64,000 nt of DNA from Clostridia bacterium (GCA_045537695.1 JAZSQB010000016.1:3092-67091), one strand, 5' to 3'; counted from the stretch's first letter, positions 15,681 to 43,895 are shown. Notes: a model not told the origin generated them from the sequence alone. Made by a program: numbers and translations.

Positions 15681-17234
15681 TCATTTCAAAATGCCCAATC
15701 TGTAAAGCGTGTTATACAGCATAACCGCAGCTTCCGCTCTGGTAACATCATTTTGCGGACGGAAAGTTTCATCCGGATAGCCGTTGATAATGCCATAATT
15801 TACAAGATTTTCAACATCTGCGATAAACCAATCAGCAATCGTATGATGGTCGTCAAAAGCTGCATCCTTCTTTAAGCCGGCAGTGCCCATAATTCTGGAG
15901 AACAGTGCAGAAATTTCCTCACGTGTCAAAATCTGCTGCGGAGCAAAATGGCCTTCGCCATAACCTTTGTAGACGCCCATCTCTGCAAGCTTATACACTG
16001 CATCTACTGCGTACGGCTGGATTGTATTATGGTCGCTAAACACTGCAGGGTTTTCTGCTTTCTGACCCTCTACGCCAAGCACTCTTGCCAAAATAACTGC
16101 CATTTCCTCACGAGTTACGCCAAAATCCGGCTCGTAATTTGTTGCACTGTGTCCGCGCAGGAAACCTGCTGTTGCAAGAACATCTACATAGTCCTTTGCC
16201 CAGTGGTCTGTCACATCGTCAAAAGTGGTTTTCTGCGCAGGAATTGCGGTTGTCGTGCCATTCACAGTTACGAAACCTGTCTTGCTCGGTGCCGGAATGT
16301 CCGGATACTTATTCGGTGTCGGCGGCGGGAACGTACCTGTGCCCGCGCCTGCGCCAGTTCCGGCACCTGTGCCTGTACCAGTACCTGTACCGGTGCCTGT
16401 ACCGCCTTCGTCCGGATCCGGAACGACAATTGTACCCTGCTGCTTAAGCTTAAACGAATTGATTGATTTTAACGTTTCAGCAAAATCGCGCTTATCAATG
16501 TTGTCATCCGCATTGATAATCTCACAGAAGCGTGCCATAACGTCTTCTGCCGAAGTTACTGTTGTGCCATTGATTTCCTCAAAATCTTCAGACTCAACTA
16601 TCCATTCTTGAAGGTTGTTCTTGAAGGTTGTATTTGTAAAACCATAGAACTTATAGTCATAATTCGGGTCTGCTGGATCTGCAGTAAATACAACCAAATC
16701 GCGAAGGTTATACAACATCTGATAGAATACTGCATCTGTTAAACCATCGGTCACATAAACAGAACCTTCTCCACCAAACAGATAGCTGCAAAGAGCTGCA
16801 TTGCCGGCTGCATAAACTGCTCCCGCATCATAACCTGCAAAGCCCACACGATCATGCCAATTTTCAACGGCAGTTCTTCTTATATCCGTCGGAACACATT
16901 TCAGCATAGTAAGATAAAACTTAAGTGCCTGCTTCTCCGTATCAGAAACACCGTAAGCATCGATGAAGTCACGGATAAGCTCGCTGACTCCACTTTGGTT
17001 ATCCACCAAACCAATTAAGGTATCCATACCGGCATCCGTAGAAACATACACCTCGATGAAATCATAAATAATTTTTCTCTGCTCCTGTGTTTTGCTGTCC
17101 ATAAAGACTTTTACACTGTCCAAAGTGTCTTTGAAACCTGCGTCGGATACAGTCACATTTGCACTTACACCCATGCAACAGCAACTCAGCAACATCAAAA
17201 GGCTTAACATAACGGCAATTATTTTTTTCGTCAT
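15681..17234 (-). CDS. SLH-domain surface protein with a (Gly-Thr/Ala)n linker
   Basis: The true start is probably MTKKIIAVMLSLLMLLSCCCMGVSA (ATG 17232-17234, AAAGGAGA RBS). The ORF-track start at 17453 would overlap the capD-like gene. It carries a GGTGTGTGTGTGTGAGTGAGAGTGT linker and three C-terminal SLH repeats. Confidence 0.8.
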   Translation of the reverse strand: MTKKIIAVMLSLLMLLSCCCMGVSANVTVSDAGFKDTLDSVKVFMDSKTQEQRKIIYDFIEVYVSTDAGMDTLIGLVDNQSGVSELIRDFIDAYGVSDTEKQALKFYLTMLKCVPTDIRRTAVENWHDRVGFAGYDAGAVYAAGNAALCSYLFGGEGSVYVTDGLTDAVFYQMLYNLRDLVVFTADPADPNYDYKFYGFTNTTFKNNLQEWIVESEDFEEINGTTVTSAEDVMARFCEIINADDNIDKRDFAETLKSINSFKLKQQGTIVVPDPDEGGTGTGTGTGTGTGAGTGAGAGTGTFPPPTPNKYPDIPAPSKTGFVTVNGTTTAIPAQKTTFDDVTDHWAKDYVDVLATAGFLRGHSATNYEPDFGVTREEMAVILARVLGVEGQKAENPAVFSDHNTIQPYAVDAVYKLAEMGVYKGYGEGHFAPQQILTREEISALFSRIMGTAGLKKDAAFDDHHTIADWFIADVENLVNYGIINGYPDETFRPQNDVTRAEAAVMLYNTLYRLGILK

Positions 17235-17274
17235 ATTCCCATCTCCTTTAAATATATATGTTTTTAATAATATT

Positions 17275-19203
17275 TTACGCATAAACCTTACTGCCCGCTT
17301 CCGGATTTGCAACGTCTTTTTCAGATACTGTCTCCTCTTTGGTATCCTTAAGCGGCATATTTTTATACGTTGGTACCACTTCTGCCAATTTATCCTTAAT
17401 TTGTTGTGCATCTCCCTGGTAAGCACTTGTTTGCAGGCTATCCAATTGTGCACACAGATTTTTCCAATCCATCGTCATCGGCTTTGCTACAAATATTTTC
17501 TCATTCACAGTAGCACGAAGCCCCTCTTCATTCATCAAAAGCTCTTCATACAACTTCTCACCCGGACGAAGGCCCGTGATAATAATCGGAATATCGCGAC
17601 CGACTTCCAAGCCGGAAAGCTGTATCAAATTCACAGCCAAATCATAAATCTTTACCGGCTGCCCCATATCCAGAATAAAAATCTCTCCACCCTTCGCGTA
17701 AGATGCAGCCTCTAATATCAAACTCACTGCCTCCGGTATGGTCATAAAAAATCTTGTAACTTCTTTATGGGTCAGTGTAATCGGGCTGCGTTCAGCAATC
17801 TGTTTTTTAAACAATGGTACAACGCTACCATTTGAGCCAAGCACATTACCAAAACGCACCGCAACAAATTCTGTCTTGCTTATCGAGCTAATGGACTGAA
17901 TAATCATTTCACATACACGCTTTGTCGCACCCATGACATTGGTCGGATTAACGGCCTTATCTGTAGATACCAGCACAAAACGCTCTGTGCCGTATTTATC
18001 GGCTGCTGTAGCAACATTATACGTGCCCATCACATTATTTTTAATGGCTTCCGACGGGTCATGCTCCATCAGCGGCACATGCTTGTGCGCTGCTGCATGG
18101 AATACGATTTGCGGACGAATCGCTTCAAAAAGCGAATCAATTCTTTCTTTATCGCGTACACTTGCAATCAACACTTCAAACGAAGCATTCGGCATTTTTC
18201 TTATCAAATCCATCTGCAAATCATACGCATTATTTTCATAAATATCTAAAATATATAATTTCTTCGGCGCAAACTTTAAAATCTGACGGCAAAGCTCGCT
18301 TCCAATACTGCCACCGCCACCTGTCACGAGCACAACCTTATCACAAATATAATCCGTAATTTTCTGATTGTCCAATTTTATGCTGTCTCTGGGCAACAAG
18401 TCTTCAATTTGCACATCACGGATGCCCGAGGTCACTTTGCCATAATTCACGATTTCATCTAATGTCGGCAAAACACGCACCTTGCAATTCGTCCGACGGA
18501 TAATATCCAGAATTTCTGCTCTGTTTCGGTGGTCCAGCGACGGGATGGCAAGCAAAACCTCGTCTACGCCATACTTCTCACAAAGCTTAGGTATATCATT
18601 GCGCATACCCAATACTTTAAAGCCACGAATCAGCATTTTCTGCTTATTTAAATCATCGTCAACCAAACCAACAATCGTATAATTGGTTCCGCCGGCAAGC
18701 ACTTCAGAAATAATACGAGTACCGCCTCCGCCCGCGCCGACAATTAAAAGACGAATACCGCCCTGTGTATACTGTGCACTGCATGTATAACCCCTGATAA
18801 TATATTTAAGCGCAACCCTAGCTGCCACAAAAGCAATGACATTAACTAACGCAACCAAAATCTGTACGTCCCATGTGTAGAAAAACGACGAATTGGGCAC
18901 AACAAGGCTTCCGGCAATCAAGGCAAGCATTGCAATACCAATGCCGTAAGCGCAAACAAAATAGTCTCGCATACCGGAAACGCGCCACAAAACACGGTAA
19001 CCGCCAACCAACCTTTGTGCTCCTATATATACAATAGCTGCAATAAACACGGCTAAAAATCTGTAATCCAACCCACTAAATATACTCGTTTGCGCTGTGT
19101 GATGTATAAACAGGAAGTCTATAAAAAGATAAGCAAAAAACACAATGGCACCGTCTATTAGACATAATGCACAACGAAGAAATTGCTTCGTATATGGCCT
19201 CAT
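17275..19203 (-). CDS. Membrane-anchored polysaccharide biosynthesis protein CapD/PglF/WbpM type (NDP-sugar 4,6-dehydratase/epimerase)
   Basis: N-terminal TM segments, then Rossmann motifs LIVGAGGGG and VLVTGGGGSIGSE; 642 aa. Confidence 0.8.
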   Translation of the reverse strand: MRPYTKQFLRCALCLIDGAIVFFAYLFIDFLFIHHTAQTSIFSGLDYRFLAVFIAAIVYIGAQRLVGGYRVLWRVSGMRDYFVCAYGIGIAMLALIAGSLVVPNSSFFYTWDVQILVALVNVIAFVAARVALKYIIRGYTCSAQYTQGGIRLLIVGAGGGGTRIISEVLAGGTNYTIVGLVDDDLNKQKMLIRGFKVLGMRNDIPKLCEKYGVDEVLLAIPSLDHRNRAEILDIIRRTNCKVRVLPTLDEIVNYGKVTSGIRDVQIEDLLPRDSIKLDNQKITDYICDKVVLVTGGGGSIGSELCRQILKFAPKKLYILDIYENNAYDLQMDLIRKMPNASFEVLIASVRDKERIDSLFEAIRPQIVFHAAAHKHVPLMEHDPSEAIKNNVMGTYNVATAADKYGTERFVLVSTDKAVNPTNVMGATKRVCEMIIQSISSISKTEFVAVRFGNVLGSNGSVVPLFKKQIAERSPITLTHKEVTRFFMTIPEAVSLILEAASYAKGGEIFILDMGQPVKIYDLAVNLIQLSGLEVGRDIPIIITGLRPGEKLYEELLMNEEGLRATVNEKIFVAKPMTMDWKNLCAQLDSLQTSAYQGDAQQIKDKLAEVVPTYKNMPLKDTKEETVSEKDVANPEAGSKVYA

Positions 19204-20976: not shown

Positions 20977-22209
20977 TCATATATCCAATTCCAGCTTTTT
21001 CTGCAACCGACAGCTGCCATACAAACGCGTGTTCCAAGGTTCGCTTTGCGCCGCCTTTACAAAAGACAAGCCCTGCACACACACGCCATCTGCAACGCGT
21101 GTTCCTGCTGTAAAAAATGTATACCTTGTGTCATAATTCCCTTCTGCCAAGGCGGAAATATCCAGTTCCAAAACATAACTGCACACTGCATCCACCTGCA
21201 TATTTTCCGCAATTTCACCCACCATACCCGTTGCCACCGGTCTTTGCTCAGCATCATATACCGTCAGACGCACACCAAGTCCCTGCGCCGGCACTAGATT
21301 TTTCCACACAAGCTCCACGCGCAAAGTATCCTGCAGCACGCTGCTCCCGTTTGGATAATGCGCCGAAACCGGTCGCACAAGCACATCCTTGCGCCGCAAA
21401 ATCATCTTTGGCTGGCTATAGTCTAACTTACCTTCCCTTTTCTCTGTACATAAATACGCCCGAATACCACTTTCCGTATCTCCATCAAACATCAGCTGTC
21501 CATGGGAAAGCACGAGCACGCGATTGCAAATCTGCCGTACCATTGTCATATTATGACTGACATAGAGCACGGTCTTATTCCCTTCGCTTGCCAACTGCAT
21601 AATTTTTTCCAGACACTTTTGTCTGAAATGCGCATCACCGACGGCTAACACCTCATCTAAAATCAAAATATCCGAATCCAAATGCGAAGCCACAGCGAAC
21701 GCCAATTTAACATACATGCCCGAAGAATATCGCTTTACCGGCGTATCGATAAATTCACTGCATTCGGAAAATGCAATGATATCTTCTATTTTCTTATCAA
21801 TTTCCGCGCGCGTCATCCCCAAGATGGCACCGTTTAAATAAATATTCTCCCTGCCGGTCAGCTCCCCATGAAAGCCCGTTCCGATTTCCAGCATGCTCGA
21901 AACGCTACCGCGAATATAAACCGCACCGGCACTCGGCGCAGTAATACGAGAAATAATCTTGAGCAGAGTCGATTTGCCTGCGCCGTTTCTGCCGACAATA
22001 CCGACCACTTCTCCACGCTTGATTTCAAAGTTCAAATTTCGCAACGCTTCAAAAGCATCGCTCTTTTTTCCGCCGAGACGGCTGTTCGGATTCTCGCGTC
22101 CGCGAAGGCGCGCCCAAAGGCTCTGCAAATCACGCGACAATGTTCCGCCGCCGATTTTGCCGCGCGTATATGTTTTATGTAATTTTTCCACACGAATTAC
22201 AGTTTCCAT
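20977..22209 (-). CDS. Polysaccharide/teichoic-acid-type ABC exporter ATPase (Wzt/TagH-like) with a C-terminal substrate-binding-type extension
   Basis: GRNGAGKST Walker A, YSSGMYVKLAFA signature, ILILDEVLAVGD Walker B, and a C-terminal domain of about 170 aa. I prefer the METVIRVEKL start (ATG 22207-22209) because the longer ORF overlaps wzm. Confidence 0.8.
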   Translation of the reverse strand: METVIRVEKLHKTYTRGKIGGGTLSRDLQSLWARLRGRENPNSRLGGKKSDAFEALRNLNFEIKRGEVVGIVGRNGAGKSTLLKIISRITAPSAGAVYIRGSVSSMLEIGTGFHGELTGRENIYLNGAILGMTRAEIDKKIEDIIAFSECSEFIDTPVKRYSSGMYVKLAFAVASHLDSDILILDEVLAVGDAHFRQKCLEKIMQLASEGNKTVLYVSHNMTMVRQICNRVLVLSHGQLMFDGDTESGIRAYLCTEKREGKLDYSQPKMILRRKDVLVRPVSAHYPNGSSVLQDTLRVELVWKNLVPAQGLGVRLTVYDAEQRPVATGMVGEIAENMQVDAVCSYVLELDISALAEGNYDTRYTFFTAGTRVADGVCVQGLSFVKAAQSEPWNTRLYGSCRLQKKLELDI

Positions 22210-22219
22210 ATATTCCGCC

Positions 22220-23059
22220 TCACACAATATCAATAAAGGTACGTTCCGTTCGTCTGAAGAATACAATACCTACCCAAAGCAATAACAAAGTAACAGCAAT
22301 CGAAATCACCATATGTCCCCAGGACAGTGCGCCTACACCCAAAAAGCCATATCGAAAGGCTTCCATAAACGGTGTTACCGGATTAAGCATATATACCCAG
22401 CGGTATGTCTCGCCTACTGCCGAAGCCGGATAAACCACCGGCGTAATATACATCCATGCCTGCAGCAAAAATCCAATCATCACAGAAAAATCTCTATATT
22501 TTGCCGTCAAACTTGTCAAAATCAGTCCGCAGCCCAACGCCAGTACCGCACTTTGCAAAAGCACCACCGGCAAGAGCAGGCACGCCGCATTGATTTGCAC
22601 TGCACCATTTGCCGCATAAACAATAGAGAATACAAGAAAGATAGCAAATTGTACACCAAAAATAACCATTTTTGAAAATACAACCGAAACCGGCACTGTC
22701 AGGCGCTGAAAATACACCTTGCCAAATAAACGCGCATTGTTCCGGAACGTTTCAGAAATTTTTGCAAGACAGGACGAAAAATATGTCCACAAAATACTGC
22801 CTGCCATATAAAACACAAACTGTGGCACGCCATCGGTAGACAGTTTTGCAATACCGCCGAATACAACCGTAAGCACCGTAGAAGTCAAAAGCGCAGACAA
22901 CACGAACCAAAGCGGTCCGAGCACCGTCTGCGTATACAACGTTTTACAATCGCGCACAACAAAAAGCCGTGTCAGCTCCGCTGCCCGTTTCCAAGCCGCA
23001 AAGCCACCGACAGACTTTGTTTTTTTCGGTGTAATCACCGTTGTCCACTGCTGTGCCAT
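22220..23059 (-). CDS. ABC-2 type exporter permease (Wzm/TagG-like)
   Basis: Six TM segments; the size and its position upstream of the ATPase are typical of the family. Confidence 0.75.
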   Translation of the reverse strand: MAQQWTTVITPKKTKSVGGFAAWKRAAELTRLFVVRDCKTLYTQTVLGPLWFVLSALLTSTVLTVVFGGIAKLSTDGVPQFVFYMAGSILWTYFSSCLAKISETFRNNARLFGKVYFQRLTVPVSVVFSKMVIFGVQFAIFLVFSIVYAANGAVQINAACLLLPVVLLQSAVLALGCGLILTSLTAKYRDFSVMIGFLLQAWMYITPVVYPASAVGETYRWVYMLNPVTPFMEAFRYGFLGVGALSWGHMVISIAVTLLLLWVGIVFFRRTERTFIDIV

Positions 23060-23074
23060 GTTCTACCTCCATTT

Positions 23075-23860
23075 TCAATCCAGCATTGCATGCGCAGCAC
23101 GCACAACCGCCGCCGCATCCACCGCTGTATCCGCGGCGTCAATTTTCAAATGCAGTAAATATTCAATATTGCCCTCCGGTCCCTTGACCGGCGAGTAATC
23201 CAGACCGCAAATACCCATACCGTTATCCCGTGCAAAAGAAAGCACGCGTAAAATCACACTTTCGTGCACCGCCGGGTCTGTCACAATACCTTTGTTTTCC
23301 ACCTGATACTTCTCCGCTTCAAACTGCGGCTTAATCAGTGCAACAATATCCGCATCAGCCGAAAGCAACTGCCGTAATACCGGCAATACTAACCCGAGCG
23401 AAATAAACGAAACATCAATGGAGGCAAAGCTCGGGCTACAGCCAAGCATCTCCGGCGTAACAAAACGAATATTCGTACGTTCCATATTTACAACACGTTT
23501 GTCACTGCGTAGCTTCCAAGCCAGTTGTCCGTAGCCGACGTCCACGGAAAACACACGCACCGCGCCGTTTTGCAGCATACAATCCGTAAAACCGCCCGTG
23601 GACGCGCCGATATCCATTGAAATTTTATCCTTTAAGTCCACCCGAAAAACCTGCATCGCTTTTTCAAGCTTCAGTCCACCGCGACTGACGAATTTCAACC
23701 CCTTTTCGCGCACTTCAATCACGTCTTTTTCCCCCAGCATATGACCGGCAGTATCCAGACGCACCTCTTTATTATACACCAAACCGGCAAGCACCAAAGC
23801 CTGCGCCGTTTTCACATCCGCCGCGAAGCCGTGCTCAACCAGATACATATCCAAACGCAT
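23075..23860 (-). CDS. tlyA: TlyA family rRNA 2'-O-methyltransferase
   Basis: It starts MRLDMYLVEHGF (S4 domain) and has the FtsJ-type motif DIGASTGGFTD. The ORF-track start at 23926 overlaps the end of dxs. Confidence 0.85.
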   Translation of the reverse strand: MRLDMYLVEHGFAADVKTAQALVLAGLVYNKEVRLDTAGHMLGEKDVIEVREKGLKFVSRGGLKLEKAMQVFRVDLKDKISMDIGASTGGFTDCMLQNGAVRVFSVDVGYGQLAWKLRSDKRVVNMERTNIRFVTPEMLGCSPSFASIDVSFISLGLVLPVLRQLLSADADIVALIKPQFEAEKYQVENKGIVTDPAVHESVILRVLSFARDNGMGICGLDYSPVKGPEGNIEYLLHLKIDAADTAVDAAAVVRAAHAMLD

Positions 23861-23873
23861 TTTTTTTGCCAAA

Positions 23874-25727
23874 TCAGTTCTTCCCTTCACAAATCCATGC
23901 ACAGATGCCGTCCGCATCCAGACCATAACGCTTATAGATAGATGCTACATCCGCCTGCGGTACAAACGCATCATATCCGCGACTGACAAAAGTAGCCTGC
24001 ACACCATTTTTGAGCAGCTGCGCGCCAATCGCCTCTCCAATACCGCCGGAGACAATACCGTCTTCTACCACCAGGACTCTGCCGGTCTTACGGGCACTTT
24101 CTAAGATGGATTCTATTTCTAACGGCCATACCTGACGCAGTACCAATACATCGGCTGACTTACCGGCAACCGCTGCCGTTTCTGCCGCCCGCATCGCTTC
24201 GCGCGCAAGAACCCCCACTGCAATCACCGTTGCATCTGTGCCCTGAAGCACCCAATCCGTCTTGCCCGGGCAAAAATCGTGCAGCATTTTTGCCTGCATA
24301 TCCCCGCGCGGATAGCGCAAGGCAATCGGTCCGTTCATGTCCCGCACCGCATAACGCAGCATCGCATCCATATCTTCAAAGTTCGCCGGTGCAAGCACCT
24401 GTATGCTCGGTATCTGCCTTAAAAATGCCAAATCAAATATACCCTGATGTGTTTCGCCGTCCGCGCCGACAACGCCGGCACGGTCTACAGCAAGGACTAC
24501 ATGCAAATTTTGCAGTGCTACATCATGAATAATCTGATCATACGCGCGCTGCAAAAACGTGGAGTAAACGGAAACGACCGGAATATCCCCTGAAATCGCC
24601 ATGCCCGCCGCGGATGTAACCGCATGCGCTTCAGCAATACCGACATCGCAAAAACGCTTCGGATACTTTTGTGCAAACTCTCCCATGCCGCTACCGAGCG
24701 TCATCGCCGGGCTGATAGCTACCAAGCGCGGCTCTTCCTCTGCAAGCTGCAGCAGGCTTTCACCAAACGTCGCCGAATAATCCCTCTTCACAGGCTGCAT
24801 ACAAGCCTCACAATTATCCATATCAAATTTCGATACGCCATGGAAATGCTGCGGCGCATTTTCAGCCGGCGTGTATCCTTTTCCTTTTACTGTACACACG
24901 TGCACCAACACCGGACCCTGCGTTTGTTTCGCACGCTTAAGCATCATTTCGAGCTTTGGTAAATTATGCCCGTCCACCGGTCCTAAATACGTAAACCCAA
25001 GCTCGTCAAATATATTTGCCGGCAAAACAACCTTCTTTACCGCATTTTTTACTGCACGCAAACCGGCCGCAATTCCCTTGCCGACTGCATTTTTAGAAAG
25101 GAAGCGTTCCGTTCTGCTCTTTGCATTCAAATAAGATGGCTGTGTGCGGATTTTGGATAAGTATGCCGACATACCGCCGACATTACCTGAGATAGACATC
25201 TGATTATCATTTAAAACCACAATCAGATTACCCTTTTCTCTTCCTGCATCACATAAGGCTTCATAGGCAAGACCGCCCGTCAACGCTCCATCGCCAATCA
25301 GCGCCAGCACGTGATGCTTTTCCTGCGCCAGATCACGCGCACGCGCCATACCGAGCGCCGCCGAAACCGAAGTCGAGCTATGACCGGTATTAAAGCTGTC
25401 GTATTCGCTTTCCTCTGTCTTTGGAAACCCCGCAAGACCACCTTCTTTTCTGAGCGTAGGAAACTGTTCTCTGCGTCCGGTCAATATTTTATGAATATAG
25501 CTTTGATGTCCCACATCAAAAACCAGCTTGTCCTCGGATAAATCAAATACACGATGCAATGCCAACGTCAATTCCACTACGCCGAGGTTGGACGCCAGAT
25601 GTCCGCCCGTTTTGGAAACGGACTCGATTAAAAAGGCCCTGATTTCCGCGGCCAGCTGCTTAAGCTGCCCGGAATTGAGAGCCTTCACATCCGCGGGACC
25701 ATTTATCGTGTCTAAAATTTCGTACAT
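23874..25727 (-). CDS. dxs: 1-deoxy-D-xylulose-5-phosphate synthase
   Basis: 617 aa with GGHLASNLGVVELT, GDGALTGG (TPP binding) and GHSSTS. Confidence 0.95.
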   Translation of the reverse strand: MYEILDTINGPADVKALNSGQLKQLAAEIRAFLIESVSKTGGHLASNLGVVELTLALHRVFDLSEDKLVFDVGHQSYIHKILTGRREQFPTLRKEGGLAGFPKTEESEYDSFNTGHSSTSVSAALGMARARDLAQEKHHVLALIGDGALTGGLAYEALCDAGREKGNLIVVLNDNQMSISGNVGGMSAYLSKIRTQPSYLNAKSRTERFLSKNAVGKGIAAGLRAVKNAVKKVVLPANIFDELGFTYLGPVDGHNLPKLEMMLKRAKQTQGPVLVHVCTVKGKGYTPAENAPQHFHGVSKFDMDNCEACMQPVKRDYSATFGESLLQLAEEEPRLVAISPAMTLGSGMGEFAQKYPKRFCDVGIAEAHAVTSAAGMAISGDIPVVSVYSTFLQRAYDQIIHDVALQNLHVVLAVDRAGVVGADGETHQGIFDLAFLRQIPSIQVLAPANFEDMDAMLRYAVRDMNGPIALRYPRGDMQAKMLHDFCPGKTDWVLQGTDATVIAVGVLAREAMRAAETAAVAGKSADVLVLRQVWPLEIESILESARKTGRVLVVEDGIVSGGIGEAIGAQLLKNGVQATFVSRGYDAFVPQADVASIYKRYGLDADGICAWICEGKN

Positions 25728-25743
25728 AGACTACACTCGTTTC

Positions 25744-26322
25744 TTATCTGCGCCCAAAAGGCGCCGTAACGTAATAAACAATCTTTCCTAAAATAAATAC
25801 AATCGTATTGTTGTTGAGCATCGCAATGCCTTTGCCGGCAGCTTTGCCGCCAATCATCAACGCCGCAACCACACCTGCCAAAAGCAGATTTAACAAATCA
25901 CTGTTCATATGCAGAAGCACCGATAGACTCACAACAATCGCGCCCGTCATCGCACCGGAAACAATACCGGCAATATCACCGATCACGTCATTGCACAGGC
26001 TGGAAAGCTGCTGCGCATTACGAATAATCCAAATGCTTTCCTTGGCGCCCTTGATTCTTCTTGTAGCCATCGCGTGAAACGGCGCCTCACTCGCCGTGGA
26101 AATTGCCATGCCAAGCATATCAAATAAAATGCTCAAAAGCACAATCAAAATCAACACAGCAAACGCCAACACCGTGCCCATTTCCTCTGCACTTGCTGTT
26201 AAAACCGAAAACAGCACACTTAAAACAAATGCAAGTACCGTCACCAAAACGGTCCACTTATGGTTAATTTTCAAATTCTCCGCCGAGCTTTTTACTTTCA
26301 GTCTTCGCCTTTCCCTGTCCAA
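25744..26322 (-). CDS. oapA: Small 4-5 TM membrane protein, candidate OLE-associated protein OapA
   Basis: 192 aa with a TTG start and a GGAG RBS, immediately 3' of the structured ncRNA locus and 5' of dxs-tlyA. This is the published position of OapA. A loose resemblance to DUF21/CNNM TM regions was also noted. Confidence 0.5.
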   Translation of the reverse strand: MDRERRRLKVKSSAENLKINHKWTVLVTVLAFVLSVLFSVLTASAEEMGTVLAFAVLILIVLLSILFDMLGMAISTASEAPFHAMATRRIKGAKESIWIIRNAQQLSSLCNDVIGDIAGIVSGAMTGAIVVSLSVLLHMNSDLLNLLLAGVVAALMIGGKAAGKGIAMLNNNTIVFILGKIVYYVTAPFGRR

Positions 26323-26339
26323 GAAATAATCACTCCATT

Positions 26340-27010
26340 AATTCTTAAAGTTCTATAAAATGCGGCCAGAAAAACGGTGGTAATCTGCAATGTTAATTTT
26401 ACGGCTTAAGGTCAGGTAGGCTTTCCCATGCCACTGCTCTTCCGTCGCCGGAAAAGCGGTTTCCCATTAAAGCAGCATACACATACGTTACCGCATATGC
26501 GACCTGACTACCACTGAGTCCGTACCTCAATCCATTGCAAATCAGCGAAGCAACAGTCTAGGGGATTTCCCCGACAGTCACACCTGAACCTTAGCCTCTT
26601 TTGCAAGTTGCGTTTCAAACAGCGATAACCGCTTTGCATCGGCCAACACAAATCGGTCTGTCCGTTATCCCTGCGCAACCCGCTCAAGGCAGGCTACACT
26701 GCACCCAGCGCAAAAAGCACCGAAATACAGGTTTCATCCTAAGTCGTAGAAGCTTACAGAAGGCTTAAGCCTTTTGCAGCGGCAACCACGAGTTTAGGTC
26801 TCCACGGTAAAGGGGATCGACGCCCGCATGCCATTGCGGATCGCCCCAAAACCTTAACTTCCAGCACCCACCCAGAACTGGGCGTTCCACGCAAGCACCA
26901 GAAACTTCATCGATATGCCCTTCAGCGGATTTTTAGGCCCGCCCTGGGAACAGGTAGATCTGACTAGAATACTGCACCACCGCTTTTTTGGCAGCACTTC
27001 ACACTAATGC
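26340..27010 (-). ncRNA. ole: Large structured ncRNA, candidate OLE (ornate, large, extremophilic) RNA
   Basis: About 660 nt with no ORF of 60 aa or more on either strand. There are many strong local helices and a dedicated promoter. The order ncRNA - small TM protein - dxs - tlyA matches the synteny of OLE. No RNase P or tmRNA signature is present. No covariance-model search was run. Confidence 0.55.
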
Positions 27011-27015
27011 AAGTA

Positions 27016-27044
27016 TATATTATCACGTTTTTTGCATTTTGTAA
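27016..27044 (-). promoter_or_regulatory. Promoter of the large ncRNA
   Basis: On the minus strand, TTTACA (27039-27044), a 17-nt spacer, then TGaTAATAT (27016-27024). Confidence 0.55.
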
Positions 27045-27113
27045 AGCAAAATCTATATCTGACAGCAATAAAGCGGGCGAGACTTTCAAAGTCCGCCCGC
27101 TTATTCTATCCAT

Positions 27114-27545
27114 TTATGCGCCGAAAATTTCTTTATTATCTGCCGTAGCAAAGCCCTTTGCTTCCAGCACTTCAACTGCCTTATCCTGTGCTTCTGTTTT
27201 TAAAATCACATAAGCGCCTGCGCTGCCGCGACCGATGAACGCATACAGATAATCCAGCGCAATGTCATTTTCGCGCAGTGCCGTCAGTGCGGTTGCCAGT
27301 CCGCCCGGCTTATGCTCAATACCAATGGCAATAACTTCAGTTACTTTTACAATCATACCGTTTTCGCGCAAAATCTGCTTTGCACCGTCTGCATCTTCTA
27401 CAATCAAACGCAACACGCCGAAATCGGATGTGTCGGCAATGGAAAGTGCACTGATACCGATATGATGCTCCGCTAAAATATTCAGTACATCCGCCATTTT
27501 GCCGGATTTGTTTTCCACAAAAACAGATACTTGTTTGATAAACAT
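27114..27545 (-). CDS. Tandem ACT-domain protein
   Basis: 143 aa with two ACT-like repeats (VFVENKSGKMADVLNILAEHHIGISALSI... and GIEHKPGGLATALTALRENDIALDYLYA) and a GGAGG RBS. Confidence 0.7.
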   Translation of the reverse strand: MFIKQVSVFVENKSGKMADVLNILAEHHIGISALSIADTSDFGVLRLIVEDADGAKQILRENGMIVKVTEVIAIGIEHKPGGLATALTALRENDIALDYLYAFIGRGSAGAYVILKTEAQDKAVEVLEAKGFATADNKEIFGA

Positions 27546-29740: not shown

Positions 29741-31474
29741 TCAGTCCTCCTTTGTAATTGCACCGAACGGGCAGACATTTACGCAAAGTCCGCAACCGTT
29801 ACACTGCGTTTCATCAATAACCACTTCATCACCGCGCACGGAAATTGCCGGACAACCAAGCTTCATGCAAAGCTTGCACTTTTTACAGTTGTCGCCAATC
29901 TTGCAATGTCCTGTGTATTTCACGGTTTTCAAGAGCGCACACGGACGCTGTGCGATAATTACGCTCGGTTCATCCGCCTCTGTTTCTTCTTTTACAATAC
30001 GTTCAAAGTTCTTTAAATCAAACGGGTCTGCCACAACGACTCTCTCTACGCCGACTGCCTTGGCAAGCAGCATCAAATCTACCTGCTTGGTCGGCTCCTT
30101 GCGGATGGTAAAGCCCGTGGTCGGGTTGTCCTGATGACCTGTCATACCCGTGATGGAGTTATCTAAAATAATAACTGTGTTGTTTCCTTTATTATATACA
30201 ATATCAATAAGCCCCGTGATACCGGAATGCATAAAGGTCGAATCACCGATAACGGCAACGAGCTTTTTGTTAAACTCTGCGCCGCGCGCCTTTGCCATAC
30301 CGTGTGCACCGCTGACGCTGGCACCCATGCAAACCGTTGTGTCCACACTTGCAAGCGGCGCAACCGCACCGAGTGTGTATCAGCCGATGTCACCGGAAAC
30401 GGTAAGACCGAGCTTTTTGAGTACATAGAATGTACCTCTGTGCGGACAGCCGGCACACATAACCGGCGGACGCACCGGAATCGTTTCGCCGATTTCTTCA
30501 AAAGACGCACCGTCTTCGCCCAGTACAACCTTCTTAATCATCGTCGGTGTATACTCGCCTAAAAGCGTAAAGCTTTCTTTGCCGACAACATCAATACCGA
30601 GCGCGCGGCAATGGTTTTCAATCACCGGATCGAGTTCTTCGATGACAACAACCTTTTCGTGCTTTGCCGCAAAGTCCTTAATCAATTTTTCCGGCAGCGG
30701 ATATACCATACCAAGCTTTAAGTAGCTCACCTTATCTCCAAGCGCTTCTTTTGCATACATATGCGCAACGCCGGAGGTGATCACACCGATTTTGTTCGTG
30801 TTGATTTCCGTAGTATTAAACGGGCAGTTTTCCGCAAATGCCGCAAGTGCCGCCATTCTCTCCTCGACAACCACGTGGCGCTTAATCGCATTGCCCGGCA
30901 TCATAACATTCTTTGCCGGATTCTTTTCATAATCCTTAAGTGGCTGCTCTTCTCTGTCGCAAAGCTCTACCAGACCCTGCGAGTGCGATACGCGCGTCGA
31001 CAAGCGGATAATCACTGGCGTGTCGAACTTTTCACTCAATTCAAACGCAGCCTTTGTATATGCCTTACATTCCGGACTGTCCGACGGCTCCAGCATCATA
31101 ATCTTCGATGCTTTTGCATAATGTCTGGAATCCTGCTCATTCTGGGAAGAATGCATACCCGGGTCATCTGCCACGCAAAATACAAGACCTGCGTTTGCGC
31201 CGATGTAGCTTACCGTAAACATCGGGTCAGCCATTACATTCATGCCGACATGCTTCATGCAGGACATGCTTCTCGCACCTGCGATGGACGCACCAATTGC
31301 CACTTCCGCGGCAACCTTTTCGTTGGTGGACCACTCTACGTGCGGCTCTTCATATTTTGCCATACATTCCGTAATTTCGGTACTCGGTGTGCCCGGATAG
31401 GATGCAACCACGCGAACGCCTGCTTCCCAGGCACCTCTTGCAACCGCATCATTACCAATCAATAACTTTTTCAA
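29741..31474 (-). CDS. iorA: Indolepyruvate/arylpyruvate:ferredoxin oxidoreductase alpha subunit, interrupted by one in-frame TGA (candidate selenocysteine, otherwise a pseudogene or sequencing error)
   Basis: The two ORF-track pieces (30380-31474 and 29741-30346) are in the same frame and join as ...LTVSGDIG-TGA-YTLGAVAPLASVDTTVCMGAS..., giving 577 codons, the normal IorA length. The C-terminus carries a 2x[4Fe-4S] ferredoxin domain. Confidence 0.8.
30344..30382 (-). promoter_or_regulatory. SECIS-like hairpin immediately 3' of the in-frame UGA of iorA
   Basis: The RNA reads UGA UAC ACA CUC GGUGC-GGUU-GCGCC G CUUGCAA GUGUG. There is a 5-6 bp upper stem with a GGUU apical loop beginning 17 nt after the U of the UGA. 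A lower helix CACAC/GUGUG encloses an asymmetric internal loop. Confidence 0.4.
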
Positions 31475-35603: not shown

Positions 35604-35898
35604 AAAAAATCGCCCTCTGAAATCAATCAGAGGGCGAGAATTCCAATCCCGCGGTACCACCTCAGTTCACTGTTTTCTCACGGAAACAGCCTTTTAGAGT
35701 ACGACGCCTCATCTACGCTATACCCCTGCGCTATAACGGGCGCCCCCGTGACAGCCTACTAAAATCGCTTCGTTCGGTGCCCGACTCCGGAAATGTATTC
35801 AGCCTTGCGCCGCCTTACTGTCTCACACCACCCGACAGCTCTCTGGAAGGTAAAACGCATGCCTACTTGTTCTCCATCACAGTCTTTCACTGGTTTGT
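35604..35898 (-). promoter_or_regulatory. T-box riboswitch leader; the specifier codon reads UAC (Tyr)
   Basis: Read on the minus strand: K-turn GUGAUGGAGA, AGUA, AG-bulge/distal loop CCAGAGAGCUGUCGGGUGGUGUGAGACAG, and specifier loop GAA-UAC-A (codon at 35795-35797). The T-box sequence is AACUGAGGUGGUACCGCGGG (35648-35667). The terminator is UCGCCCUCUGA...UCAGAGGGCGA followed by UUUUUU (35604-35637). Confidence 0.85.
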
Positions 35899-43810: not shown

Positions 43811-43895
43811 GCGGATGTGGCGAAATTGGCATACGCGCAAGATTTAGGTTCTTGTGTCCCGAGACGTGCAGGTTCGACCCCTGTCATCCGCACCA
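43811..43895 (+). tRNA. tRNA-Leu (anticodon UAG)
   Basis: 85 nt. Acceptor arms GCGGATG/CATCCGC, anticodon stem-loop CAAGA-TTTAGGT-TCTTG, a long variable arm, T-arm GCAGGTTCGACCCCTGT and an encoded CCA. Confidence 0.95.

Follow-up and report, generated by a model that had tools for sequence, protein, structure and literature searches.

An OLE RNA and its OapA partner gene in an uncultured Clostridia-type bacterium

OLE RNA is a large bacterial non-coding RNA (ncRNA) that has been known since 2006 and is present in Rfam, and it ranks among the largest and best-conserved bacterial ncRNAs without an assigned biochemical activity. Two further partners, OapB, a KOW-domain protein whose gene would be expected between map and infA, and OapC (YbxF, of the L7Ae family), are normally encoded at other places in the genome. 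This study concerns a stretch of 64,000 nucleotides from a Clostridia bacterium (GCA_045537695.1 JAZSQB010000016.1:3092-67091), hereafter called the window, in which an earlier note, made from the sequence alone, had proposed a candidate OLE RNA together with its protein OapA at positions 25744-27044. That proposal was right, as follows from the match to the Rfam OLE model RF01071 together with the homology, DxxxD motif, predicted fold and placement of the OapA protein. With a probability of about 97%, the locus is an ole-oapA operon of an uncultured Clostridia-type bacterium, continued by dxs and tlyA and, probably, by the genes of an ABC-2 exporter. It is a textbook member of an RNA class that is already known, and it brings no new mechanism.

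The described systems provide the frame for the comparison. In GTDB Bacillota genomes 2,822 OLE copies were counted, and shortened forms of the RNA, variants 1 and 2, were described for the reduced-genome TANB77 and RF39 lineages (PMC11332333). In Halalkalibacterium halodurans the P13 hairpin is the high-affinity OapB site, where both a GNRA loop and a single-nucleotide bulge were reported to be required; the bulge was described as highly conserved and as critical for the binding of this protein, which has a weak secondary site at P14.1 (PMC7936274). The joiners J4a/5 and J5/6, which flank P5, form the OapC kink-turn (k-turn) in this organism (PMC9723947). The A-rich P4 loop is a dimer contact in models obtained by electron cryomicroscopy (cryo-EM), the GGCC loop of P9 is a dimer kissing loop, and the P3/P3.1 helix, typically of about 12 bp, is the proposed membrane-spanning element (PMC12265935). 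The loops of P5.1 and P6.1 form a kissing pair, and the P6 region is the reported site of bS21 (PMC12265935, PMC12054373).

Identity and fold of the RNA

The whole window was scanned against Rfam 15, and OLE (RF01071) was matched on the minus strand at 26996-26361 with 480.3 bits (E = 7.7e-138), the gathering score of this model being 50 bits. The match covers model positions 1-616 and is not truncated, and no competing Rfam family was found over this stretch in the scan. The earlier note had suggested exactly this comparison, which came out in favour of its assignment with a full-length match and no rival family; its estimate of a structured RNA of about 660 nt stands as to the RNA, with the extent corrected to 26361-26996, or 636 nt. 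The OLE sequences of four relatives score 478-497 bits against the same model. Every model position is aligned and P7, P8 and P9 are all present, so that the RNA is of the full-length type and not variant 1 or variant 2.

The RNA occupies most of a 791-nt non-coding gap, from 26322 to 27114, between the gene of an ACT-domain protein and an open reading frame (ORF) of 192 amino acids (aa), both on the minus strand. This gap is the largest truly non-coding one in the window. The longest ORF within 26340-27010 has 59 aa, which bears out the earlier observation that this region contains no ORF of at least 60 aa; a 68-aa ORF on the plus strand (27007-27213) merely touches its edge. A seeming second gap of 808 nt (16467-17274) was rejected, since a 590-aa ORF with an S-layer-homology (SLH) domain spans the region. 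The ORF of this SLH protein (15681-17453, minus strand), which contains a low-complexity linker of Gly, Thr and Ala (GTGTGTGTGTGAGTGAGAGTGT), had been masked in a greedy ORF map, and the region therefore mimicked a large non-coding gap.

Because the RNA is co-oriented with oapA and lies 38 nt away from it, with no terminator detected between them, the 0.65-kb region might be regarded as merely a long cis-regulatory 5' leader of oapA-dxs-tlyA, a riboswitch or attenuator, instead of a stable independent RNA. However, the 480-bit match is to the model of an OLE gene and includes all 616 positions, no cis-regulatory family matches the region, and in H. halodurans OLE is abundant and protein-bound (PMC12265935). 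The 21-bp terminal helix P1 likewise sets discrete ends: its 5' strand UGCUGCCAAAAAAGCGGUGGU pairs with the 3' strand ACCACCGUUUUUCUGGCCGCA at 19 of 21 positions, and this pairing covaries in relatives. Given the defined terminal helix and the match along the whole of a gene-type family, a pure cis-regulatory leader can be excluded for practical purposes.

The secondary structure was analysed by running RNAalifold on seven clade members, which gave 212 base pairs, 72 of them with compensatory changes, including pairs in P13, the P7 tip, the extended P1 and P3/P3.1. This number of compensatory pairs within the clade indicates purifying selection on the OLE fold. All conserved elements of the family are kept, the single-stranded loops and joiners being essentially identical to the consensus. 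In the RNAalifold structure the P3/P3.1 helix comprises 11 pairs with one internal bulge (alignment columns 38-49/451-462), and two of these pairs covary.

The elements that have been assigned roles in described OLE RNAs can be located individually, all on the minus strand. The P4 hairpin (26924-26943), with its conserved A-rich loop CUAAAAAU, does not deviate from the consensus. The P5/P5.1 region (26852-26914) retains the consensus nucleotides, with the loop GCCCA on P5.1 and the joiners AUCGAUGAAG (J4a/5) and AGUUAAGG (J5/6), which at sequence level agree with the consensus of the k-turn joiners. The Rfam alignment places the P6/P6.1 hairpin with its loop AAUGGCAU at 26812-26847, the terminal loop of P9 with its self-complementary GGCC (UUGGCCGA) at 26636-26649, and the P14.1 hairpin, capped by a GCGA tetraloop, at 26437-26456. 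Judged by sequence, the dimerisation loops of P4, P5.1, P6.1 and P9 are thus all present. A lineage-specific extra hairpin, an insertion relative to the Rfam model, forms the P7 tip (26757-26774, AAGGCUUAAGCCUU), and its stem covaries among the relatives (alignment columns 230-234/239-243), which have AAGGC/GCCUU, GCAC/GUGU, CGGGC/GCCCG and AACGC/GCGUU. An insertion at the P7 tip was also observed in the OLE copy of another genome, where it measures about 230 nt and falls at about model positions 211-227 (L020:9361-9595).

The helices listed in the earlier note were partly recovered in this structure. The pairing GGGGCGAUCCGCA...CCCC corresponds to P6/P6.1, AAGGCUUAAGCCUU to the P7 tip, and GGGGAAAUCCCC to a conserved hairpin at model positions 405-414. 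The two others did not hold. The CCCAG/CUGGG stem is not real, GCCCA being the conserved P5.1 loop and GCGUGGAAC/GUUCUGGGU the true P5.1 stem. The long-range pairing GAUAAC...GUUAUC represents another register of the P9 base, where the consensus pairing AACGG/CUGUU is favoured because it covaries in a distant relative, L001 (GACAG/CUGUC).

The OapA protein

The 192-aa protein encoded directly downstream of the RNA (25744-26322, minus strand) was assigned to OapA on the basis of homology, motif, fold and synteny. It has 616 homologues in a large protein collection, most of which are unnamed or called "hypothetical", a few being labelled as CNNM transmembrane domain or having a precomputed PF01595 hit. 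Alignments of 14 and of 43 homologues contain the invariant motifs FD..G, (N)DVIGD and GGKA.GK. The DxxxD motif corresponds to D112-VIG-D116, with both aspartates invariant in the 43 homologues; it is a distinctive mark of OapA and is lacking in CNNM domains (Fernando and Breaker, PMC11332333).

Hydropathy analysis revealed hydrophobic segments at about residues 21-48, 42-78, 113-139 and 139-162, and an AlphaFold2 model with a predicted local distance difference test (pLDDT) score of 78 has four long transmembrane (TM) helices at residues 21-48, 50-76, 103-137 and 141-169, followed by a C-terminal helix. The four to five TM segments expected from the earlier note are therefore four. When the model was compared with the PDB using Foldseek, the top five matches were 7M1T_B, 7M1T_A and 7M1U_A, from the archaeal CNNM protein MtCorB, and 7CFG and 7CFF, from the TM domain of bacterial CorC, each with a probability of 1.00 and query TM-scores of 0.41-0.50, all other matches being far behind. 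The published top structural match for OapA of H. halodurans is 7M1U (PMC11332333). Lysine and arginine residues are clustered at positions 3-22 and 88-101, and K160 and K164 are invariant; these residues may correspond to the conserved positive charges that are clustered on the cytoplasmic face of OapA.

The TTG start codon (26322) and its GGAG ribosome-binding site (26333-26336), 8 nt 5' of the start, were found as previously described. Together with the 38-nt spacer between OLE and oapA, they are conserved in the relatives.

To place the protein in a wider genomic context, one genome per GTDB species was scanned with the OapA alignment, which yielded 80 loci, and OLE was then sought in these by nhmmer with the OLE sequence of the window. 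OLE was found directly upstream of the OapA homologue, on the same strand, in 77 of the 80 loci, that is, in all 77 that could be tested, the contig ending within 700 nt of the gene in the remaining three. The loci cover Bacillaceae (Virgibacillus, Halobacillus, Oceanobacillus and Metabacillus) and many Clostridia. Since OLE lies directly upstream of its homologues, the protein is OapA by the defining association of this family. The earlier identification of the product of 25744-26322 is hence upheld by the 616 homologues, the DxxxD motif, the four-TM, CNNM-like predicted fold and the placement in 77 of 77 loci.

A few loci in other genomes are unusual. The distance between OLE and oapA, usually below 150 nt, is 3.2 kb in one locus (L051:6794-10001) and about 0.85 kb in another (L026:8280-9126). 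In a sequence titled Pseudomonas sp. ISL-84 (L064) OLE stands directly upstream of oapA and the usual dxs-tlyA follow, and in one titled uncultured Muribaculaceae (L053) OLE is again directly upstream of oapA, with no dxs or tlyA match detected. Both are probably contaminant or mislabelled contigs, in agreement with a published remark that the few non-Bacillota OLE matches look like Bacillota DNA. In public databases the OapA family has neither a Pfam nor an NCBIfam model, and its copies are left unnamed, called "hypothetical protein" or loosely labelled as CNNM; a dedicated OapA model would mend the annotation in hundreds of genomes.

Transcription unit and gene neighbourhood

The ior-paaK-ACT operon upstream of the RNA ends in a terminator-like hairpin that was read from the sequence (27066-27102, minus strand; GCGGGCGGAC / GUC-U-CGCCCGC, then UUUAUUG). 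It is absent from the simple terminator scan, which missed it because the stem has a bulge. Following this hairpin, a motif scan located a sigma-70-type ole promoter on the minus strand (27017-27045), in which TTTACA is separated by 17 nt from a TG-extended TAATAT. The RNA had been predicted to possess such a promoter of its own, and it is indeed present at 27045-27017; both hexamers are conserved in the relatives L081, L082 and L083 and in the distant L001, whose OapA is 57% identical. The terminator scan gave nothing between OLE and oapA, and as oapA follows after only 38 nt, co-transcription is likely.

Downstream of oapA, and 16 nt past it, lies dxs (23874-25727, minus strand), encoding 1-deoxy-D-xylulose-5-phosphate synthase (TIGR00204, 693.5 bits). 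It is followed without real gaps by tlyA (23075-23926, minus strand), the gene of a TlyA-family rRNA 2'-O-methyltransferase (TIGR00478, 241.5 bits), and by genes for an ABC-2 permease and ATPase (20977-23059, minus strand; Pfam ABC2_membrane and ABC_tran), resembling polysaccharide exporters of the Wzm/Wzt or TagGH type, to which the NCBIfam matches (Wzm/Wzt/TagH) are sub-threshold. The true start of tlyA is probably just past the dxs stop codon; the tlyA product is called at 265-268 aa in the relatives. It is likely that ole, oapA, dxs, tlyA and the ABC-2 pair constitute one operon. The neighbours recognised previously, namely dxs, tlyA, the ACT gene, paaK and the ABC-2 permease and ATPase, were all confirmed by TIGR00204, TIGR00478 and Pfam.

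The downstream order ole-oapA-dxs-tlyA is standard and widespread: oapA is followed by dxs in 61 of the 80 loci and by tlyA in 65. The ABC-2 pair next to tlyA is conserved only in L081-L083. Upstream of OLE the window contains the ACT gene (27114-27545, minus strand), a PaaK-type ligase gene and iorB/iorA. The immediate upstream neighbour is ispA (polyprenyl synthetase) in 43 of 65 testable loci and one of an assortment of genes in the other 22, and no ispA-like gene was found anywhere in the 64-kb window. No ior/paaK/ACT block was found upstream in the 80 species representatives; the close relatives L081, L083 and L084 (OapA 83-89% identical) have kept it, and L082 is without paaK and ACT. 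The different flanking context pointed out in the earlier note is thus real and clade-specific but not unusual, given that 22 of 65 sampled loci are likewise without ispA upstream, and for this reason the upstream context was rejected as a sign of novelty.

The upstream operon has features of its own. It is headed by a T-box leader (35627-35889, minus strand; Rfam, 109 bits), runs down to 27114 and includes genes for an SSF transporter, an amidohydrolase_2 protein and an AMP-dependent ligase, followed by iorA, iorB, the paaK-like ligase gene and the ACT gene. The T-box specifier, GAA-UAC-A, reads Tyr and is invariant in the window and three relatives; induction by tyrosine starvation would fit the synthesis of tyrosine from imported arylacetate via reductive carboxylation. 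In iorA (29741-31474) an in-frame TGA (30380-30382, minus strand) splits the alpha subunit of indolepyruvate:ferredoxin oxidoreductase into 364 and 201 aa. It sits at the Cys codon, TGC or TGT in four relatives, of the conserved motif GDIGCYTLG; conceivable causes are a nonsense mutation, an error of sequencing and selenocysteine recoding, and no sel genes or tRNA-Sec were found in the window. A tRNA-Leu gene with the anticodon TAG and a long variable arm is located at 43811-43895 on the plus strand.

Functional interpretation and comparison with known systems

Several points weigh against the assignment as it stands. The 192-aa protein has no match in Pfam, NCBIfam or the PDB sequences, so that its membership in OapA rests on homologues, motif, fold and synteny, and the E-values of its Foldseek matches are weak (0.0045-0.27). 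Among ten small ORFs of the 64-kb window that were scanned, no Pfam match to the KOW or L7Ae families was found. All functional statements for this organism are made by analogy. The single-nucleotide bulge of P13 is not present in the RNA, and with this bulge closed the protein complement of the particle may differ.

The P13 hairpin (26479-26500, minus strand) was defined from the Rfam alignment, RNAalifold and a heuristic parse, and has a GUAA loop of the GNRA type. Its 3' strand contains one extra nucleotide (A, at about 26487) facing the bulge position, which results in a continuous 9-bp stem, GCAUAUGCG-GUAA-CGUAUGUGU. Among the seven clade members all nine positions (columns 541-549/554-562) are paired. 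Compensatory changes affect four of these, and six sequences have U-A as the closing pair where the seventh has U-G. The heuristic parse worked for 53 loci and failed or was unclear for the rest, so the counts are indicative and not exhaustive: a canonical 5' bulge was recognised in 33 of the 53, and a continuous helix only in the window, L081, L083, L084 and L001. In L082 and L005 the strands are of equal length with one internal mismatch.

The bulge bears on recognition by OapB, whose bulge-contacting residues are R20 and R49 in H. halodurans numbering, and does not define the OLE family. It is conceivable, though rather doubtful, that the OLE particle of this clade dispenses with OapB or contains one that recognises the RNA in another way; if true, the clade would offer a natural separation-of-function variant from which the contribution of OapB could be learned. 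The closed bulge in an otherwise full-length RNA is the only point of the locus that might interest specialists.

The missing bulge, on which OapB binding depends in H. halodurans, also bears on whether this is a real OLE that is decaying or no longer functional, for instance where genome reduction has eliminated OapB or other partners, and the in-frame stop in the neighbouring iorA points to some gene decay or sequence error in the contig. Such decay is very improbable, however, because the conserved loops and joiners are all intact, the changes within the clade are compensatory at 72 pairs, as expected under purifying selection on structure, and conservation extends to the promoter, to the start codon and to the invariant residues of OapA. 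Moreover, the RNAs of reduced-genome lineages are variants 1 and 2 (PMC11332333), whereas the copy in the window is full length.

For an intact ole-oapA operon, a mechanism can be drawn from the described systems (PMC12265935, PMC7936274, PMC9723947, PMC12054373, PMC10898510). The promoter at 27045-27017, just past the hairpin that terminates the upstream operon, would give rise to a transcript of which the first 650 nt or so would fold into the full-length OLE RNA (26996-26361). By analogy with H. halodurans and the clostridial cryo-EM models, two such RNAs would dimerise via the loops of P4, P5.1/P6.1 and P9 (PMC12265935). OapA would bind OLE cooperatively and bring it to the membrane, with an OapA dimer bound near P4a and P3 holding the particle at, or possibly across, the bilayer, which the P3/P3.1 helix is proposed to cross. 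As in H. halodurans, the resulting ribonucleoprotein may help the cell to cope with cold, short-chain alcohols, excess Mg2+ and poor carbon sources.

Each correct annotation of an OLE RNA adds a little comparative data. The present copy contributes a cleanly delimited, stand-alone transcription unit, with a terminator hairpin, a conserved promoter and the order ole-oapA-dxs-tlyA, as well as the clade-specific loss of the P13 bulge and the notice that OapA is without a Pfam or NCBIfam model. The locus leaves the picture of OLE unchanged. The earlier note overstated the novelty, and one more representative, from an uncultured host, does not on its own bring the function of OLE closer to being tested.

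With the CNNM/CorB/CorC/MpfA Mg2+ transporters (PF01595) the protein of the window shares the helical TM fold (Foldseek probability 1.00). It differs from them in having only 192 aa, no CBS or CorC_HlyC cytosolic domains, a score below the PF01595 threshold (no Pfam match at E <= 0.001), the DxxxD motif, and four TM helices as against three in CorB (PMC11332333). By these features it falls outside the CNNM/CorC Mg2+ transporters. With OapA (the H. halodurans BH2780 family) it shares the position directly downstream of ole, the four TM helices, the DxxxD motif, the lysine/arginine clusters at the N terminus and in the loop 88-101, and a predicted CNNM-like fold with CorB and CorC as the best structural matches. 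It is about 40-45% identical to the Bacillaceae homologues retrieved, through which, and not through BH2780 itself, the comparison was made.

Compared with known OLE loci, the window differs from H. halodurans, where ole forms part of a long polycistronic operon (PMC12265935), in that a promoter dedicated to ole directly follows a terminator hairpin, and from the ispA-flanked loci in that its upstream neighbour is the ior/paaK/ACT operon under control of a Tyr T-box. The RNA itself departs from other full-length OLE RNAs in its bulge-free P13, a continuous helix of 9 bp, and from the Rfam model in the extra covarying hairpin of 17-19 nt at the P7 tip. In other respects it resembles the full-length OLE RNAs of H. 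halodurans, Clostridium acetobutylicum and C. botulinum, having a length of about 640 nt and oapA immediately downstream, and it is identical to the OLE consensus in the loops of P4 (CUAAAAAU), P5.1 (GCCCA), P6.1 (AAUGGCAU) and P9 (GGCC), in the k-turn joiners and in the GNRA loops of P13 and P14.1.

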